23,343 nucleotides of DNA from a virus (taxonomy: Duplodnaviria > Heunggongvirae > Uroviricota > Caudoviricetes): positions 1 to 23,343 of the IMG/VR virus record IMGVR_UViG_2541047945_000008. One strand, written 5' to 3'. Positions 3,894 to 22,009 of this stretch are shown piece after piece. The notes under the pieces are model-generated. The model had not been told where the DNA came from. It worked only from the letters and a program-made list of their open reading frames with translations, and searched no databases. The position numbers were made by a program, and so were the translations under genes. The first letter of the stretch is position 1. Each line of letters opens with the position of its first letter.

Positions 3894-3985
3894 TTTGTTT
3901 TACCTCATTACAGATTTAAGGGTGAACAAATCCCTGCCATTGCTGGCATATAAGAATGAAACCGGATATTTATTACGGAACTGTT

Positions 3986-4177
3986 TTAAAGACCTGCCGG
4001 GATTTCGTTATTATCCTGGTGAATAACTTTATCGACCGGGTAACAGTTACCGGGAATTTTCTGTTCGGTTGCTGCAGTCACACACTCCTGCATTGTCCTG
4101 TGAACACTGACTGCAATATCAACTGGCTCTCCGGAAACAAGAAAAACTGTCAGAACAAGTGCAAATGCTGTATTCAT
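3986..4177 (-). CDS. ydfD: YdfD-like small protein with hydrophobic N-terminus (64 aa)
   Basis: Protein MNTAFALVLTVFLVSGEPVD... recalled as YdfD of the Qin dicB operon. SD AAGGA 8 nt upstream; start overlaps the dicB stop. The track ORF was trimmed to this internal ATG. Confidence 0.55.
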   Translation of the reverse strand: MNTAFALVLTVFLVSGEPVDIAVSVHRTMQECVTAATEQKIPGNCYPVDKVIHQDNNEIPAGL

Positions 4178-4362
4178 TGTGCACATCCTTTTTGTATCGG
4201 ACGTAAACGGGCCAGCATTGAAAGAATGCATATTTTATTTAATAACTCCCGTTCGTGTTTTCTCTTGTTAATGGCATCTTCAGTAAATACAGGGTTACTG
4301 ATAGTGACACCAATTTCAAAACAACCTTCAGACGTATTAACGTTTGGTAATAACGTTTCCAT
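4174..4362 (-). CDS. dicB: Cell-division inhibitor DicB (62 aa)
   Basis: METLLPNVNTSEGCFEIGVTISNPVFTEDAINKRK... closely matches my recollection of E. coli DicB (62 aa). SD GAGGA 7 nt upstream. Lies just downstream of DicF. Confidence 0.8.
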   Translation of the reverse strand: METLLPNVNTSEGCFEIGVTISNPVFTEDAINKRKHERELLNKICILSMLARLRPIQKGCAQ

Positions 4363-4540
4363 TATCGCGTCCTCAACAATGAATTTTGTGATGCAGTGCC
4401 TGGTGCCTCCAGGTGACGTTAACCAGTTAACAATTAACGCCGGGTTAGTTGATGCTCGTTACGCCCGTAAAATACCGCCTTACTGCTTTAACTGTTCCGC
4501 GTGCGCATAGCCGCATTCACCGCATCACAAAATTCACTTT

Positions 4541-4598
4541 AAAAAGGGCGGCAGAGCAGTCACGGAGTAAAACTGATACCGCCAAATGTCACCAGAAA
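4541..4598 (-). ncRNA. dicF: DicF small regulatory RNA
   Basis: The reverse complement reads tttctggtgacatttggcggtatcagttttactccgtgactgctctgccgcccttttt, matching my recollection of DicF (the ftsZ-targeting sRNA processed from the dicB operon transcript), ending in a T-run. Confidence 0.7.
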
Positions 4599-11287: not shown

Positions 11288-11524
11288 TTTTATGGATCAC
11301 CTTTCTGATTGATTTCATATTGGCGAGGTGACGTGAGTTAAGTAGAATGGCTGCGGGTGCTTGAGGCTATCTGTCTCAGGCATGAACACTGAAAGGCAGA
11401 TAGAGAAAAGCCCCAGTTAACATTTCGCGTCCTGCAAGACGCTTAACATTAATCTGAGGCCCAATCTATGTCTCACAAATGTAGGTTAGCCTCTTACGTG
11501 CCGAAAGGCAAGGGGAAGCAGGCT

Positions 11525-11680
11525 ATGAAGCAGCAAAAGGCGATGTTAATCGCCCTGATCGTCATCTGTTTAACCGTCATTGTGACGGCACTGGTAACGA
11601 GGAAAGACCTCTGCGAGGTACGAATCCGAACCGGCCAGACGGAGGTCGCTGTCTTCACAGCTTACGAACCTGAGGAGTAA
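11525..11680 (+). CDS. hokD: Hok/Gef-family membrane toxin (51 aa), HokD/RelF-like
   Basis: MKQQKAMLIALIVICLTVIVTALVTRKDLCEVRIRTGQTEVAVFTAYEPEE matches my recollection of HokD/RelF. A structured leader lies upstream and a terminator downstream. Confidence 0.8.
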   Translation: MKQQKAMLIALIVICLTVIVTALVTRKDLCEVRIRTGQTEVAVFTAYEPEE

Positions 11681-15663: not shown

Positions 15664-16349
15664 ATAACCAGTATTTACAGTTTGTGCGTGAGCAGCTCAT
15701 TATCGCCACCGCTGATTTGAGTGGGGCAACAAAAGGTCAGCTTGAAGCCTGGCAGGAGAATGCCATGTTCGATACAGGGCGTTACAGGCGTAAAAAAATC
15801 CGGTACCGCGATGAAGTGACCGGAAAAATGATAACGCGGGATAATCCACCAATCCCGGGAAAACAATCGCTGGCGAAGGGGACGTCAATTCCTCTGGTCA
15901 GTCAGGTTGCTTTTTCTACATCATCATGGCGGCGGGCTGTTTTGTCTCTTGAAGAACATCATAAAGCCTGGTTGTTGTGGTGTTACAGCGGAAATACTTG
16001 CTGGGAGTATCAGATCGCGATAACGCAGTGGGCATGGACAGAATTTAAGACTCACTCTGGTACCAGGAAAATTGCAGGGAAGACACAGGAACGCCTGAAA
16101 AAATTAATCTGGCTGGCTGCACAGGATGTCAGGAGATGGGTTATAGGACATGATATCTACCAGCAACAGGAGCTTGCCCGTCTGTGTGGGATTAAGCCTG
16201 ACAACTGGAGCCACAATTATGTGAGCTACTGGCGTGAAATACTCGACATTTTTATGAACCTCGATACCGAATCTCTGATTTGCACTGTGAAAAGGAGATC
16301 TCAACAAAAAGCGGCATTTTTGCAGCGAGATATTGCAAAAGTCAATTAG
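15660..16349 (+). CDS. Late-gene antiterminator Q-like protein (229 aa)
   Basis: ATG overlaps the rusA stop (ATGA). Position downstream of rusA and upstream of the tRNA/late region, and size, fit a Q antiterminator. Confidence 0.6.
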   Translation: MNNQYLQFVREQLIIATADLSGATKGQLEAWQENAMFDTGRYRRKKIRYRDEVTGKMITRDNPPIPGKQSLAKGTSIPLVSQVAFSTSSWRRAVLSLEEHHKAWLLWCYSGNTCWEYQIAITQWAWTEFKTHSGTRKIAGKTQERLKKLIWLAAQDVRRWVIGHDIYQQQELARLCGIKPDNWSHNYVSYWREILDIFMNLDTESLICTVKRRSQQKAAFLQRDIAKVN

Positions 16350-16396
16350 ATAGCATATATTTTATGTAAATGTGATATATTGCTGTAAAGTGTATA

Positions 16397-16423
16397 AACC
16401 CGCTCAAATGTGCGGGTTTTTTG
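16397..16423 (+). terminator. Rho-independent terminator downstream of Q
   Basis: cccgc-tcaaatgt-gcggg followed by TTTTTT. Confidence 0.55.
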
Positions 16424-16495
16424 CTTAACTCTGTGGACCTTTTTATCTGTAGTTGTAATATATGGATATTGTTACAATTTAGGTCGGTGAGCTTA

Positions 16496-17260
16496 ATGGA
16501 AGAACAGCACGGTAATTACTTTATAAAACGAATTCAGTTGATTGGAAGAGGGGCATTTGGCTTTGTTGAACACGTTAAGGTTTACAACCTCAATAAAGGT
16601 GAATGCGGGGATTATGCTAGAAAGGTTTTAGCACCCGAAAAACCAGAGCTTTTGGCGCAAATAGAGCAGTTTAGAAGGCGTTTTAAAAGGGAGGTTGTGT
16701 ATCAATCACATTGCGTACATAGCAATATTGTTCCTATTTATTTGTGCGATTTGTTTGTTGAGAATCCATGGTTCATTATGGATAAAGCAGAATGTGATCT
16801 TGAGCACGAAATAACGAACAACCTTCTTACAACAGATCAAAAAATTTCAATAGTGAAAATGGTATTAGATGGTGTAGCTTACATCCATGCCAAAGGCTAT
16901 TTACACAGAGATATAAAACCCTTTAATGTTTTGCGATTTAGCGACGGAACATACAAGGTGTCTGATTTTGGTCTGGTAAAAGATACGAATCCCGAAGGGG
17001 ATACCACTAAATTGACCGAGATCGGTACCCGTATGGGAAGTACAAGATATATGGCTCCCGAGATTTTATATAATGCAGAGTATTCAGTTAAGACTGATGT
17101 TTATGCTGTGGGACGGTTAATTGAAGACTTAAATTTAGATGATAAAAAAATAAAGCCTATCATAGCTAAGTGCACAAGGATGGATAAAGATGATAGATAT
17201 CAGACAATAGATGATGTGGCGTTTGATTTTGCGCATTCTTTTTTAAGGAGTGAGTCATGA
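16496..17260 (+). CDS. Hanks-type (eukaryotic-like) Ser/Thr protein kinase, kinase domain only (254 aa)
   Basis: Canonical subdomains: GRGAFGFV (Gly loop), YARKVL (catalytic Lys), HRDIKPFN, DFG, MAPE, DVYAVGR. ATG at 16496 (track ORF starts at TTG 16421). AT-rich. Confidence 0.85.
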   Translation: MEEQHGNYFIKRIQLIGRGAFGFVEHVKVYNLNKGECGDYARKVLAPEKPELLAQIEQFRRRFKREVVYQSHCVHSNIVPIYLCDLFVENPWFIMDKAECDLEHEITNNLLTTDQKISIVKMVLDGVAYIHAKGYLHRDIKPFNVLRFSDGTYKVSDFGLVKDTNPEGDTTKLTEIGTRMGSTRYMAPEILYNAEYSVKTDVYAVGRLIEDLNLDDKKIKPIIAKCTRMDKDDRYQTIDDVAFDFAHSFLRSES

Positions 17261-18000
17261 TTCAGCTGATAGCGACTTCATCATTCTCGTATCCAAAAGA
17301 ACCAGGTAGGGTCAACGAAGATTCATTGCTTCCTCCAAAAATTGTAGGAGACGGCATCTTATTTGCCGTAGCTGATGGTGTAGGTTCATACTCTGGTGCC
17401 AGTTATGCTTCATCCATGGCAATCGCTGAACTTTCAGCATTGACAAGTTTATCTTTTGATGCAGTTCCGAATGTATTTGCTGAAGTTAAGCGAAAAGTTA
17501 TGTCGTTAGCTGAAGTTAATGATGAGTTCGATAAAGCTGCTACTACACTTACCTTTTGTTATGTTTGTGATAGCGGAATTATTATTGGTCATATTGGTGA
17601 TTGTCGCTTGTATTGCATTGGAGAAAAGAAAGCATATCAATTGACGAAGGACGATACCAGACATCAGATGTTAATTGATCAGAATATTTTTAAACCCAGA
17701 GATTTGAAGAATAAACCGGGAAAAAATATCTTAACGACTGCCATAGCCTCAAATGTTGATATGGAATACGACTGTGATTTTATCCCGTGGAAAGATTTGC
17801 CTGGTATTAACGGGTTGTATCATCTGTGTATCATGTCTGATGGAGTTCATAACGTTTGGGAAAAACGCCCCAGATTTACATCAAATACTATGAGTAATAG
17901 TCAGAAGTTTTCTAATGGTATTTTGCGTCGTATAGAGAGAGCCGGACCTGATGATGACTTTTCTTTAGTAAGTATAATGGTGCGTGTGACGTCAGATTAG
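17257..18000 (+). CDS. PP2C-family (PPM) Ser/Thr protein phosphatase (247 aa)
   Basis: PPM motifs: NEDS, FAVADGVGS, GDCRLY, MSDGV, GPDDD. Start overlaps the kinase stop (ATGA), so the pair is translationally coupled. Confidence 0.85.
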   Translation: MIQLIATSSFSYPKEPGRVNEDSLLPPKIVGDGILFAVADGVGSYSGASYASSMAIAELSALTSLSFDAVPNVFAEVKRKVMSLAEVNDEFDKAATTLTFCYVCDSGIIIGHIGDCRLYCIGEKKAYQLTKDDTRHQMLIDQNIFKPRDLKNKPGKNILTTAIASNVDMEYDCDFIPWKDLPGINGLYHLCIMSDGVHNVWEKRPRFTSNTMSNSQKFSNGILRRIERAGPDDDFSLVSIMVRVTSD

Positions 18001-18110: not shown

Positions 18111-18437
18111 GTGCAGTACGTTAAACACGCTTGTGGTTGTGAATGCCGACTGCGGCGGTATTTTGGCGTGACAGCGCAGGTGCCGTATACCGATGTCTGG
18201 ACGCATAAACCGGTGCAGTTCTATCCCGGGAAACATCCGTGCGAAAAACCGGCAGAAATGCTGCAGCAGATAATCAGCGCAAGCAGTCGTCCGGGAGACC
18301 TGGTTGCAGATTTTTTTATGGGCTCAGGTTCAACGGTAAAAGCGGCACTGGCGCTCGGGCGTCGTGCGATTGGCGTTGAACTGGAGACCGGACGTTTTGA
18401 GCAGACAGTCAGGGAAGTTCAGGATTTAATCGTTTGA
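18111..18437 (+). pseudogene. C-terminal fragment of an N6-adenine/N4-cytosine DNA methyltransferase; N-terminal catalytic part absent
   Basis: HPCEKP ... PGDLVADFFMGSGSTVKAALALGRRAIGVE matches the HPTQKP plus FxGSGS(T) AdoMet-binding end of this methylase class. No DPPY-type region upstream; only about 110 bp separate it from the phosphatase gene. Confidence 0.55.
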
Positions 18438-18659: not shown

Positions 18660-18736
18660 GCGTTGTTAGCTCAGCCGGACAGAGCAATTGCCTTCTAAGC
18701 AATCGGTCACTGGTTCGAATCCAGTACAACGCGCCA
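18660..18736 (+). tRNA. tRNA-Arg (anticodon UCU)
   Basis: Perfect acceptor stem GCGTTGT/ACAACGC, D-arm TAGCTCAGCCGGACAGAGC, anticodon loop CTTCTAA, T-arm GGTTCGAATCC, discriminator G, CCA. Confidence 0.85.
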
Positions 18737-18782
18737 CACTTATTTTCCCTGGCTCGCTTTTGCGGGCTTTTTTTTAAATGTC

Positions 18783-18996
18783 TCACAATTCAGGCGGTTG
18801 ACTGTTGTCTGGTTTGCGGGGAGTTTGTTAAAAGAAACTGGCATGGTGAATCCCCCTGTGCGGAGGGGCAATCAGCGAGTAGGTATATGGGATAATCGCG
18901 GATTCAGGTGCTGGTACTGAATTCACCGGGAGGCACCCGGCACCATGCAATGGCACATAGCGCCACTCTCCAGCCCCTCTCCGGAGGGGCTTTTCT
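18783..18996 (+). repeat. Repeat unit A: structured element ending in a terminator (candidate sRNA gene)
   Basis: Shares blocks with unit B: tcacaattcag, ttgac, tttgttaaaa, catggtgaatcccc, a cccc/gggg hairpin, caccgggaggcacccggcaccatg and terminator gcccctc-tccg-gaggggc plus T-run. Confidence 0.5.
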
Positions 18997-19250
18997 GTGC
19001 CGGATACATCACAGTTTCTGGAACCTTAGGTACTACAGTATCAGTCAGGGTGCTATATTTTCAGATGTGATGAAAGCCTGTCAGCAGGCAGGGCGTATCG
19101 GAAATGACCCAGTAGAGAAAACGTTGACTCAGATACCGGTGCTGAGTTACCGGGAAACCGGCATCACATGACCGCTATCCTTCCAGGCCCATCCGCTCCG
19201 GTGGGCCTTTTTACTGCAGAAAACAGGTTCCCCGTTAAATGCTATGTTGC

Positions 19251-19483
19251 TCACAATTCAGTAAGTTGACAGTTGCCTGTCAGACTGGGCATTTGTTAAA
19301 AAAATTTCGCATGGTGAATCCCCCTGAGCGGAGGGGCGACTGGTGACGGTATAATCTCTGATTATCAAAACGAGAATGACGCGGGTTTAGTGGCACCGGG
19401 CTGAACTCACCGGGAGGCACCCGGCACCATGTGCATGATGATACAGATACGCGGCTTTAGCCCCTCTCCGGAGGGGCTTTCTT
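19251..19483 (+). repeat. Repeat unit B: second copy of the structured element
   Basis: Same conserved blocks and the same terminator hairpin (agcccctctccggaggggctttctt) as unit A; internal segments diverge. Confidence 0.5.
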
Positions 19484-19711
19484 ATGGACAAAAAAAGCCC
19501 GCGCTGGGAGACGCGGGCGGCAAGGAATAAACAATAAAACGTGAAGTAATATTTCAGCTGGCGAATAATACCCCATAGTAATCACTCTGCGCAACTGCGC
19601 GGTCTTTTTCGAATTGCGGGCTGTAGTCTCCCTTCTGCCATTGTCCTGTAACTTCCGGACTTCAGCCTGCTCCTTATCTGACTCACAACATTATCCCGCC
19701 CGGGAGGATTC

Positions 19712-19855
19712 ATGGCATTTAAACACTATGACGTGGTCAGGGCGGCATCGCCGTCAGACCTTGCGAAACGACTGACACAAAAACTGAAGGAGGGCTGGCA
19801 GCCGTTTGGTAGTCCGGTGGCCATAACCCCTTATACCCTGATGCAGGCGATTTGA
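19712..19855 (+). CDS. Small phage protein (47 aa as read) whose 3' end and stop codon are supplied by the IS629 terminus
   Basis: ATG at 19712 with SD GGAGG 5 nt upstream; the ORF ends at the TGA formed by the first bases of the IS inverted repeat (TGAACCGCC...). Confidence 0.5.
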   Translation: MAFKHYDVVRAASPSDLAKRLTQKLKEGWQPFGSPVAITPYTLMQAI

Positions 19856-19906
19856 ACCGCCCCGGGAATCCTGGAGACTAAACTTCCTGAGAAAGAGGTA
19901 AACAGG

Positions 19907-20233
19907 ATGACTAAAAATACTCGTTTTTCCCCTGAAGTCCGTCAACGGGCAGTCCGTATGGTTCTGGAAAGTCAGGGCGAATATGACTCACAATGGGCGA
20001 CAATTTGTTCCATTGCTCCAAAGATTGGCTGTACGCCGGAGACTCTGCGTGTCTGGGTTCGCCAGCATGAGCGGGATACCGGGGGCGGTGATGGAGGGCT
20101 CACCACCGCTGAACGTCAGCGTCTGAAAGAGCTGGAGCGTGAAAATCGTGAACTGCGCCGCAGTAACGATATCCTTCGCCAGGCTTCCGCTTATTTTGCG
20201 AAGGCGGAGTTCGACCGCCTCTGGAAAAAATGA
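19907..20233 (+). CDS. IS629 transposase OrfA (HTH, 108 aa)
   Basis: [57 protein letters not shown]... with a leucine-zipper-like C-terminus. Confidence 0.85.
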
Positions 20234-21120
20234 TGCCACTGCTGGATAAGCTGCGTGAGCAGTACGGGGTCGGACCGCTATGCAGCGAACTGCATATTGC
20301 CCCGTCAACGTATTACCACTGTCAGCAACAGCGACATCATCCGGATAAACGCAGTGCCCGTGCGCAGCGCGATGACTGGCTGAAGAAAGAGATACAGCGC
20401 GTATACGATGAAAATCACAAGGTATACGGTGTGCGTAAAGTCTGGCGTCAGTTGTTACGGGAAGGTATCAGAGTGGCCAGATGCACTGTGGCACGTCTCA
20501 TGGCGGTTATGGGACTTGCCGGTGTTCTCCGGGGTAAAAAGGTCCGTACGACCATCAGCCGGAAAGCCGTTGCCGCAGGCGACCGCGTAAACCGTCAGTT
20601 CGTGGCAGAACGACCTGACCAGCTGTGGGTGGCTGATTTTACTTACGTCAGCACATGGCAGGGCTTCGTCTATGTGGCGTTCATCATTGATGTGTTTGCC
20701 GGATACATTGTGGGGTGGCGGGTCTCATCGTCCATGGAGACGACATTCGTGCTGGATGCACTGGAGCAGGCGTTATGGGCCCGTCGACCGTCCGGCACGG
20801 TCCATCACAGTGATAAAGGTTCTCAGTATGTATCGCTGGCCTACACACAGCGGCTTAAGGAAGCCGGATTACTGGCATCAACAGGAAGTACAGGCGACTC
20901 GTATGACAACGCGATGGCGGAGAGCATCAATGGTCTTTACAAAGCGGAGGTAATACACCGTAAGAGCTGGAAAAACCGTGCAGAAGTGGAACTGGCCACA
21001 CTCACGTGGGTGGACTGGTATAACAATCGACGATTGCTGGAAAGGCTGGGCCATACTCCTCCGGCAGAAGCAGAAAAAGCTTATTATGCTTCCATCGGAA
21101 ACGATGATCTGGCAGCCTGA
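20230..21120 (+). CDS. IS629 transposase OrfB (DDE integrase-like catalytic domain)
   Basis: 296-aa ORF overlapping OrfA (ATGA); rve-type DDE domain (WVADFTYV ... HHSDKGSQY ... DNAMAES). Confidence 0.85.
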
Positions 21121-21164
21121 GTTCACAGATAAAATACTCTCCAGGAAACCCGGGGCGGTTCACA

Positions 21165-21425: not shown

Positions 21426-22009
21426 TGGCATTCAGAATGAGTGAACAAGCACGGACCATAAAAATTTATAATCTGCTGGCCGGAACTAATGAATTTATTG
21501 GTGAAGGTGACGCATATATTCCGCCTCATACAGGTCTGCCAGCAAACAGTACCGATATTGCACCACCAGATATTCCTGCTGGCTTTGTGGCTGTTTTCAA
21601 CAGTGATGAGGCATCGTGGCATCTCGTTGAAGACCATCGGGGGAAAACGGTTTATGACGTAGCGTCAGGGGACGAGTTATTTATTTCTGAACTCGGTCCG
21701 TTACCGGAAAATGTTACCTGGTTATCGCCGGAAGGGGAGTTTCAGAAGTGGAACGGCACAGCCTGGGTGAAGGATACGGAAGCAGAAAAACTGTTCCGGA
21801 TCCGGGAGGCGGAAGAAACAAAAAACAAACTGATGCAGGTAGCCAGTGAGCATATTGCGCCGCTTCAGGATGCTGCAGATCTGGAAATTGCAACGGAGGA
21901 AGAAACCTCATTGCTGGAAGCCTGGAAAAAGTATCGGGTGTTGCTGAACCGTGTTGATACATCAACTGCACCTGATATTGAGTGGCCTACGAACCCTGTC
22001 AGGGAGTAA
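21425..22009 (+). CDS. tfa: Tail fibre assembly protein (Tfa), 194 aa
   Basis: Start overlaps the tail-fibre stop (TAATG). Conserved Tfa C-terminus ([32 protein letters not shown]). Confidence 0.8.

Follow-up and report, generated by a model that had tools for sequence, protein, structure and literature searches.

The DNA analysed here (the window, 23,343 nucleotides in full) matches, with 100% identity, a defective lambdoid prophage that E. coli LC-1302-2020 carries at ompW; the strains ML35 and VR50 have this prophage too. The prophage starts with int, xis, exo and dicB (with DicF), which are followed by immunity and replication genes, hokD/sok, DUF968 and rusA. Then come Q, of the Q82 family (PF06323), a Ser/Thr kinase, a PP2C phosphatase and a DNA methylase fragment. 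Q is immediately followed by a promoter-like site (TTGCAA, 17 bp, TATATT; 16333-16361) and then by a terminator (16396-16419), which were read as PR' and tR', respectively. Further on are tRNA-Ile2 (anticodon CAT), two tRNA-Arg genes and, after the tRNAs, a terminator at 18751-18768. Behind these we found three plus-strand units of the STnc100 type, which we call unit A, the middle unit and unit B. The units and a convergent small-RNA candidate on the minus strand are followed by a DUF1737 gene interrupted by an IS3-family element, and then by tail-fibre remnants.

A preliminary description of this DNA, made from its letters, had placed two units of about 220 bp at 18783-19483, with several blocks in common and an identical terminator. 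All of these elements were located. TTGAC occurs at 18798-18802 and 19266-19270, units A and B have the blocks TTTGTTAAAA, CATGGTGAATCCCCCTG(T/A)GCGGAGGGG and CACCGGGAGGCACCCGGCACCATG in common, and the terminator AGCCCCTCTCCGGAGGGGCT with its T-run is present in the same letters at 18972-18991 and 19459-19478. Alignment of A with B gave a mean column identity of 81%, with the inner segment as the divergent part, as had been described. The description had also proposed an Rfam scan, and when we scanned the whole window at gathering thresholds both units turned out to belong to an already catalogued family, STnc100 (RF02076, curated gathering score 47 bits). Each matched the model from position 1 to 206, unit A at 18812-19002 with 136.3 bits (E = 2.6e-30) and unit B at 19280-19489 with 165.4 bits (E = 9e-38), so that the repeat goes far beyond chance. 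The suggestion that the units are paralogous small-RNA genes was thus borne out for A and B, and the Sakai copy of STnc100 is the Hfq-bound RNA EcOnc27 (PMC4104026). They also lie where the family would be expected, in the late region of a lambdoid prophage, with Q or an accessory gene on one side and the lysis genes on the other. The region 18783-19483 therefore consists of copies of a known prophage small-RNA family, real and mostly ordinary, and its novelty is low. A search of 596 Gb of genome contigs with the short pattern CATGGTGAATCCNCC returned only chance matches from unrelated phyla, the pattern being too short to give a taxonomic range.

The number of units had to be revised. A permissive Rfam scan of 18700-19900 (1.2 kb) revealed a further STnc100 match over the full-length model at 19041-19214, with 30.1 bits (E = 2e-4). 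This score is below 47 bits, and the middle unit is a diverged relative of STnc100, not a member by the Rfam criterion, although all of its helices are present and compensated. The repeat itself stands, but the array holds three units rather than two copies. Likewise, a 33-codon ATG ORF (19070-19171) and an extra terminator (19185-19208), which had been described as lying between the units, both exist but are not separate from the repeat: they are parts of this third, diverged copy. The middle unit is carried by 673 of 5426 complete E. coli genomes (~12%) in two versions, and by five phage records. Its version in phage vB_EcoS-640R1 is 91% identical to that of the window and keeps the helices via compensatory and wobble changes, which in P2 are C-G to U-A, U-A to U-G and U-G to C-G, and in the pseudoknot U-G to U-A; the terminator is kept despite a 4-nt deletion, with a compensating change. 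Judged from its letters, the middle unit reads as a gene and not as debris. The same three-unit array is found in vB_EcoS-640R1 and in 8 of 120 IMG/VR loci, 7 of which have the terminator of a convergent sRNA after it. The recurrent three-unit array appears to be new.

Homologues of these units have been published (EcOnc27/sRNA103, PasD1/2 and STnc100_4), and their functions are known only in part. Tree et al. (2014) reported that eight Sakai prophages have convergent pairs of sRNAs 3' of their accessory genes, the pair in Sp5 being EcOnc27 (sense) and AsxR/EcOnc02 (antisense) (PMC4104026). The Hfq-crosslinked (CRAC) site of EcOnc27 is at 1268411-1268490, and Northern blots gave bands of ~235 and ~247 nt, the 247-nt form being destabilised without Hfq (PMC4104026 supplement). 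When reverse-complemented, the Northern probe for EcOnc27 matches the STnc100 tail of the Stx2 phage. In EDL933 all 11 STnc100 copies are transcribed and one of them, STnc100_4, was verified by Northern blot (PMC5331693). An STnc100 copy 75 nt after stx2B is found in outer-membrane vesicles (PMC12370729). Sequence features and variants predictive of HUS overlap STnc100 of the Stx2 phage, and overexpression of EcOnc27/sRNA103 raised espA and fimZ transcripts (PMC12711010). In EPEC, PasD1 and PasD2 are 172-173 nt long, depend on Hfq for stability and have RIL-seq targets (PMC8550237), and PasD and STnc100 were concluded to share ancestry and fold (bioRxiv 10.64898/2026.05.13.724894). In our scans PasD2 and PasD1 gave sub-threshold STnc100 matches of 41 and 38 bits. 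The literature on STnc100 holds no target validated by compensatory mutation for any member of the family.

One of the closest likenesses to the window is with STnc100/EcOnc27/sRNA103 of EHEC O157:H7. Its helices and terminator type are those of units A and B. It occupies the same slot, in which an accessory gene or tRNAs are followed by the unit and then by nanS-p, DUF1737 or lysis genes, and a convergent small RNA lies opposite, AsxR for EcOnc27 and the minus-strand candidate here. Unlike it, the window has three tandem copies, the middle one below the Rfam threshold, and no stx genes; its linkers and tails also differ from those of the Stx2a-phage copy, so any targets would differ. PasD1 and PasD2 (EPEC E2348/69, homologues of EcOnc13) share P1 (GCAUGGUG), P2, the pseudoknot and P4 with the units, as well as a -10-like TAAAAA at equal distance and a position after the Q region. 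They differ in having neither P5 nor the upstream CTCACAATTCAG block, and in a longer U-rich linker with the seed UGUGAG and another terminator. We did not assign the units to PasD: the seed UGUGAG is in none of the linkers of units A, middle and B, and their tails differ from that of PasD.

The three units folded independently into the same architecture, with a closing stem P1, a hairpin P2, a variable insert, hairpins P4 and P5, a single-stranded linker and a terminator (MFE z-scores -2.83 for unit A, -2.67 for the middle unit and -1.86 for unit B). The consensus helices of STnc100 (closing stem, 5' hairpin, two 3' hairpins and terminator) are present in the MFE folds of all three. P1 closes a 5' domain of ~110-130 nt that contains P2, P4 and P5. 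In unit A (18841-18995, its 5' end placed by analogy with PasD), P1 pairs 18841-18848 with 18941-18948, P2 is at 18853-18868, the pseudoknot strands are 18871-18877 and 18909-18915, P4 pairs 18900-18907 with 18917-18924, P5 is at 18926-18940, and the linker (18949-18971) leads to the terminator (18972-18991) and its U-run. The middle unit (19065-19213) has P1 formed by AUGUGAUG with CAUCACAU, P2 at 19077-19092, pseudoknot strands AUCGG (19097-19101) and CCGGU (19136-19140), P4, a P5 of CCGG-GAAA-CCGG, and its terminator. In unit B (19309-19482), P1 is at 19309-19316, CUGGUG (19340-19345) faces CACCGG (19394-19399) in the pseudoknot, and the terminator (19459-19478) again ends in a U-run.

In every sequence class that we examined, the P4 loop is complementary to the strand that directly follows P2. 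The paired strands differ between classes: AUCAGC with GCUG(A/G)U in the unit A type, CUGGUG with CACCGG, CACCAG or UACCAG in the unit B type and the Stx2 phage F004, AAUGAC with GUCAUU and CUGGCU with AGCCAG in IMG/VR variants, AAUGAUC with GAUCAUU in PasD, and AUCGG with CCGGU in the middle unit. In all cases but one, the loop strand stops 1 nt short of the 3' arm of P4. The covariation analysis that the preliminary description had called for was done on 25 non-redundant sequences in a hand-registered, N-padded alignment; a plain MAFFT alignment with RNAalifold had given a scrambled consensus, with the variable insert and the pseudoknot strands out of register. Over the whole structure, 98.2% of cells pair, against 85.6% in shuffles and 34-44% when the partners were slid, and two-sided changes were seen in 18 of 33 pairs, a number reached by 0 of 500 shuffles. 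The helices are thus supported. P1 is paired in 97% of cells, P2 in 100%, P4 in 99.5% and P5 in 99.1%; two-sided changes affect five of the eight pairs of P4 and four of the eight of P1, the latter all contributed by the middle unit. For the pseudoknot, two-sided changes were found in all seven pairs and 96% of cells are paired, counts that lean towards the pseudoknot because its register was set by complementarity itself, with the offset of the 5' strand free over 1-4 nt. One copy in phage vB_EcoS-640R1 keeps only four of six pseudoknot pairs. The Rfam consensus structure printed with the STnc100 matches is without the pseudoknot, and the preprint on PasD and STnc100 used RNAalifold, which cannot predict pseudoknots (bioRxiv 10.64898/2026.05.13.724894). 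The conserved 5' domain contains a covariation-supported pseudoknot that appears to be new.

These data also bear on whether the region encodes small proteins or fragments of protein genes instead. There are ORFs to consider, namely the 33-codon ORF, others of 87 and 93 aa and an antisense "hypothetical protein" pseudogene from RefSeq; in the PGAP annotation a partial hypothetical protein runs antisense to unit A, and an ORF of 132 aa antisense to PasD1. Searches of these ORFs against Pfam and NCBIfam found no significant family, the only match being a sub-threshold one for the ORF antisense to PasD1, and the ORFs in the array itself had no match in either. The substitutions between the window and vB_EcoS-640R1 that keep the RNA helices of the middle unit alter this ORF non-synonymously in four of six affected codons, and the G-U pairs of the helices indicate an RNA from the plus strand. 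We regard a protein-coding origin as extremely improbable.

Each unit is preceded by a region in which we read a candidate promoter. Upstream of unit A (18782-18834), the block CTCACAATTCAG (18782-18793) is followed by a -35-like TTGTCT (18805-18810) and, after 18 bp, by an extended -10 with TG at 18826-18827 and TAAAAG at 18829-18834; a strict promoter consensus scan made no call in this region. The region upstream of unit B (19250-19302) has CTCACAATTCAG at 19250-19261, TTGACA at 19266-19271, a -35-like TTGCCT at 19273-19278, and an extended -10 with TG at 19294-19295 and TAAAAA at 19297-19302. The region upstream of the middle unit (19009-19059) sits opposite the promoter region of the Rfam model and contains TCACAGTTTCTGG (19009-19021), a block related to CTCACAATTCAG, and an extended -10 of TG-c-TATATT (19051-19059). 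An extended -10 is thus present in all units, as TG-n-TAAAA(A/G) in A and B, at the same distance from P1 as in PasD, and the upstream blocks of A and B are kept in most of the 43 distinct upstream sequences of the IMG/VR loci. The TTGAC of the shared blocks lies 7 bp further upstream than TTGYCT. It is probably not the -35 of the RNA-proximal promoter, because it is 25 bp from the -10-like TAAAAA, whereas TTGYCT has the correct spacing of 18 bp. From these elements we infer that each unit has its own sigma-70-type promoter.

Starts at these proximal promoters predict RNAs of 155 nt for unit A, 149 nt for the middle unit and 173 nt for unit B. There is a second conserved block, CTCACAATTCAG, at ~57 nt upstream of P1, with a -10-like hexamer (TGTAAT in F004) in front of it. 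If the RNA started distally, near CACAATT/CTCACAATTCAG, its length would be ~229 nt in F004, and ~211 nt for unit A and ~229 nt for unit B here, and by analogy this would fit the Northern sizes of EcOnc27 (235 and 247 nt) better than the proximal start does. Both starts may be in use. Reading of the upstream alignment revealed no conserved hairpin common to the unit types in the 57-nt stretch upstream of P1. In PasD the annotated 5' end is the G of GCAUGGUG, an estimate from RNA-seq coverage whose size fits the Northern blot (PMC8550237).

Q proteins act on the late promoter of their own phage. The preliminary description had offered, as its other reading, that the units are duplicated cassettes of late promoter, pause site and terminator. 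Spelled out, each would have a PR'-like promoter, a Q-utilisation or pause site and tR', and their RNAs would be by-products like lambda 6S RNA or StxS. In each unit a promoter-like region is indeed followed by a strong terminator ~150-230 nt downstream, inside the late operon, and StxS provides a precedent for a leader that became an sRNA; it binds Hfq and is processed to a 3' sRNA (PMC7547250). Like the predicted RNAs of the units, StxS and lambda 6S RNA are short terminated RNAs from the lambdoid late region that are made in lysogeny; they differ in starting at PR' directly after Q and in being tied to the Q type. Comparison with Q-dependent late promoter regions did not favour the cassette reading. 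The window has its own PR'-tR'-like pair at 16333-16419, apart from the units, which begin 2.4 kb after Q, behind this other promoter and terminator, and are not part of the late leader. In F004 the region directly after Q, the site of StxS (PMC7547250), is unlike STnc100 by eye and has no STnc100 match in Rfam. Furthermore, STnc100 or PasD stands behind Q proteins of three unrelated families: PF06323 in the window and EPEC PP2, PF06530 in F004 and Stx2_95, and PF03589 in vB_EcoS-640R1 and EPEC PP4. PasD1 and PasD2 differ in just four nucleotides, yet they have different Q families upstream. As PR' and tR' come right after Q and the element is tied to no single Q family, we rejected the late-promoter cassette, to which we would give very little probability.

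The preliminary description had pointed out that Stx phages carry their toxin genes in this slot, and the comparison with them bears this out. In the Stx2 phages F004 and Stx2_95 the order is Q, (methylase), three tRNAs, stx2A, stx2B, STnc100, nanS-p/yjhS and holin, and STnc100 is found 75 nt after stx2B, facing AsxR; Rfam matches in F004 are 207.7 bits for STnc100 and 88 bits for AsxR directly adjacent on the opposite strand. The window contains a toxin-less version of the stx slot. The minus-strand candidate (19490-19594), recognised from a terminator call and its position in the AsxR slot, has a promoter-like TTGCGC, 18 bp, TATTAT (19594-19565), a predicted RNA of ~69 nt (19558 to 19490) and a terminator (19518-19497) followed by seven U. 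It is ~90% like an sRNA candidate from EPEC RIL-seq, E2348C_1409.E2348C_1408.IGR (PMC8550237 supplement). Scanning both strands of 18700-19900 with E up to 5 gave no Rfam match to AsxR (RF02703) or AgvB (RF02702), with the AsxR match of F004 as positive control. The window thus resembles the AsxR/AgvB systems in its convergent-pair module, and differs from them in that its plus-strand units are unrelated to AsxR or AgvB. We also considered whether the candidate is HnrS. It has no likeness by eye to the Sakai stretch at the listed coordinates of EcOnc10 (HnrS), and its duplex with the hha leader was no better than those of shuffles, 428 of 500 being as good, and this identity was rejected. The terminator type of the candidate is found after STnc100 in 33 of the 120 IMG/VR loci.

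The arrangement of the units could also be that of a cis-acting leader, a riboswitch or attenuator in which the 5' domain sets terminator read-through into the nanS-p esterase, DUF1737 and lysis genes. Such a role would suit a structured, pseudoknotted domain that is followed by a linker, an intrinsic terminator and then genes of the same strand. In most tail types the terminator has a 3' arm with the same letters as that of P2 (GGAGGGGC), so that the strands could exchange. However, P2 shows no relation to the terminators of the PasD-type tail and of a few other tail types, no covariation was found for an antiterminator helix, and the tails are interchangeable. What lies downstream does not fit well either: behind unit A, as behind the middle unit, there is only a further unit, and in at least 55 of the 120 IMG/VR loci, as in the window, a convergent sRNA that has its own terminator comes next. 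Among homologues, discrete RNAs accumulate, and EcOnc27 and PasD are reported to associate with Hfq. A cis-acting leader is in our judgement quite improbable.

The 120 IMG/VR loci, collected by the 5' motif, reduce to 90 unique copies; in these the 5' domain is conserved, and the part between the end of P1 and the terminator forms a mosaic with 48 distinct tail sequences, which fall into several visibly different types. The linkers contain CU-rich stretches resembling an anti-Shine-Dalgarno sequence, CUCUCC in unit A and UCCUUCC in the middle unit. The U-tails of the units in the window are short (UUUU and UUUCUU); such tails are weak for Hfq binding and for termination, a point against the small-RNA reading. 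Conservation is opposite to that of a classical sRNA: the 5' fold is kept and the presumed seed varies, so the 5' domain may be the real functional part.

One form of this idea is that the folded 5' domain is a putative decoy or binding RNA for proteins, such as CsrA-like GGA-binding ones, ProQ or a ribonuclease, and that the tail is secondary or a guide. P1, P2, the pseudoknot and P4 persist between classes whose paired strands have little primary sequence in common, tails are exchanged freely, and P2, P5 and the terminator loop all contain GGA motifs; a 2026 preprint on a CsrA-guiding sRNA mentions PasD. On the other side, P5 is absent from PasD and from one IMG/VR variant, so at least the GGA site of P5 is dispensable. 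We consider it unlikely that protein binding is the main role of the RNA, and the idea is compatible with the small-RNA reading below rather than exclusive of it. Somewhat less doubtful, and still tentative, is the more general proposal that the 5' domain is an autonomous pseudoknotted fold (P1, P2, pseudoknot and P4), a selected module that is joined to swappable tails of seed and terminator and multiplied in arrays. Such a fold might be a protein- or ligand-binding element or a nuclease-resistant one.

Taken with the family membership, fold, array structure and context observed in this DNA, the evidence argues that the region is probably an array of three tandem sRNA genes of the STnc100/PasD family with one convergent small-RNA gene, in the moron slot that reaches from the tRNA cluster to DUF1737 and the lysis genes. 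Transcription in the lysogen and Hfq binding at the 3' part have been demonstrated for homologues in the literature. By analogy, the units would be transcribed in the lysogen independently of Q, since PR' transcripts stop at tR' just after Q, and their RNAs would bind Hfq via the terminator and U-tail region. The RNAs may then base-pair in trans by means of the variable linker that adjoins the terminator, a mode of action proposed for the PasD seed, with the compact 5' domain most likely stabilising the RNA or binding protein. Late transcription, antiterminated once Q is present, would run on past the terminators of the array. What this adds to the known picture is modest, namely a previously unrecognised third paralogue, the recurrent array of three units, which here has a convergent partner and no toxin genes beside it, and the pseudoknot.

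STnc100 is one of the most abundant families of prophage small RNAs in pathogenic E. coli. Our results indicate that a prophage without the toxin keeps the small-RNA module, that this module can consist of three genes in an array plus a convergent partner, and that the Rfam threshold overlooks a diverged paralogue found in about 12% of complete E. coli genomes. The pseudoknot, supported by compensatory changes, suggests a separate function for the conserved 5' domain. If the 5' domain is an autonomous module, STnc100/PasD would be a modular RNA with a structured head and a swappable guide, rather than an ordinary base-pairing sRNA.

The prophage in the window is decayed. Only the C-terminal 108 amino acids of a DNA methylase are left (window 18111-18437), lysis and morphogenesis genes are absent from the prophage, and the DUF1737 gene is interrupted at 19852/19853 by an IS629-like element of the IS3 family (window 19712-21162). 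This element carries an ALIL frameshift pseudoknot (window 20188-20304). Elsewhere in the window, Rfam matches were found to DicF (4546-4597, minus strand), to sok, which accompanies hokD (11355-11530, plus strand) and, inside a tail-fibre-assembly remnant, to IS009 (21768-21966, plus strand).

Directly downstream of the Q82-family Q gene, a promoter-like site (TTGCAA and TATATT separated by 17 bp) is followed by a strong terminator (window 16333-16419, plus strand), and the two are likely the PR'/tR' pair. Transcripts from this candidate pair would terminate after no more than about 45-60 nt, and the resulting leader would be a counterpart of lambda 6S RNA or StxS. Between PR'/tR' and the methylase fragment with the tRNAs, a gene pair has been inserted that encodes a Ser/Thr protein kinase of eukaryote-like type together with a PP2C phosphatase (window 16421-18000, plus strand). 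As with Stk of 933W, these two accessory genes may serve in phage exclusion. In phage vB_EcoS-640R1 the same three-unit STnc100-family array as in the window has, as its next gene, not nanS-p but an iraM-like anti-adaptor gene, which lies on the opposite strand (L246, the locus in this phage, 3946-4281, minus strand). This is a further example of cargo exchange in the slot between the tRNAs and the lysis region.

The block CTCACAATTCAG is conserved about 57 nt upstream of units A and B (window 18782-18793 and 19250-19261), and a variant, TCACAGTTTCTGG, precedes the middle unit at the same distance (window 19009-19021). Most of the different upstream sequences taken from other loci also have the CTCACAATTCAG block. 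Within the block lies CUCACA, the motif found by RIL-seq in PasD targets. The block could be the 5' leader of a longer isoform, an operator or a chance occurrence.

A candidate small-RNA gene, oriented convergently to the array, has its own promoter-like site and strong terminator and would give an RNA of about 69 nt (window 19490-19594, minus strand). It holds the slot that AsxR occupies in Stx2 phages, and it had no Rfam match to AsxR or AgvB. An EPEC small-RNA candidate from RIL-seq, E2348C_1409.E2348C_1408.IGR, is about 90% alike. Compared by eye, the candidate bears no likeness to the Sakai stretch at the listed EcOnc10 (HnrS) coordinates.

Changes associated with HUS have been published at +90 and +103 after stx2B (PMC12711010). 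In Stx2 phage F004 they map, to about 1 nt, within TTTG-T-TAAAAAAA-TTTCG (L002, the F004 locus, 4540-4560). In our reading, this stretch supplies the putative proximal promoter of STnc100 with its discriminator and extended -10. If this promoter reading is true, the HUS-associated +90/+103 changes could alter expression of the STnc100 RNA.
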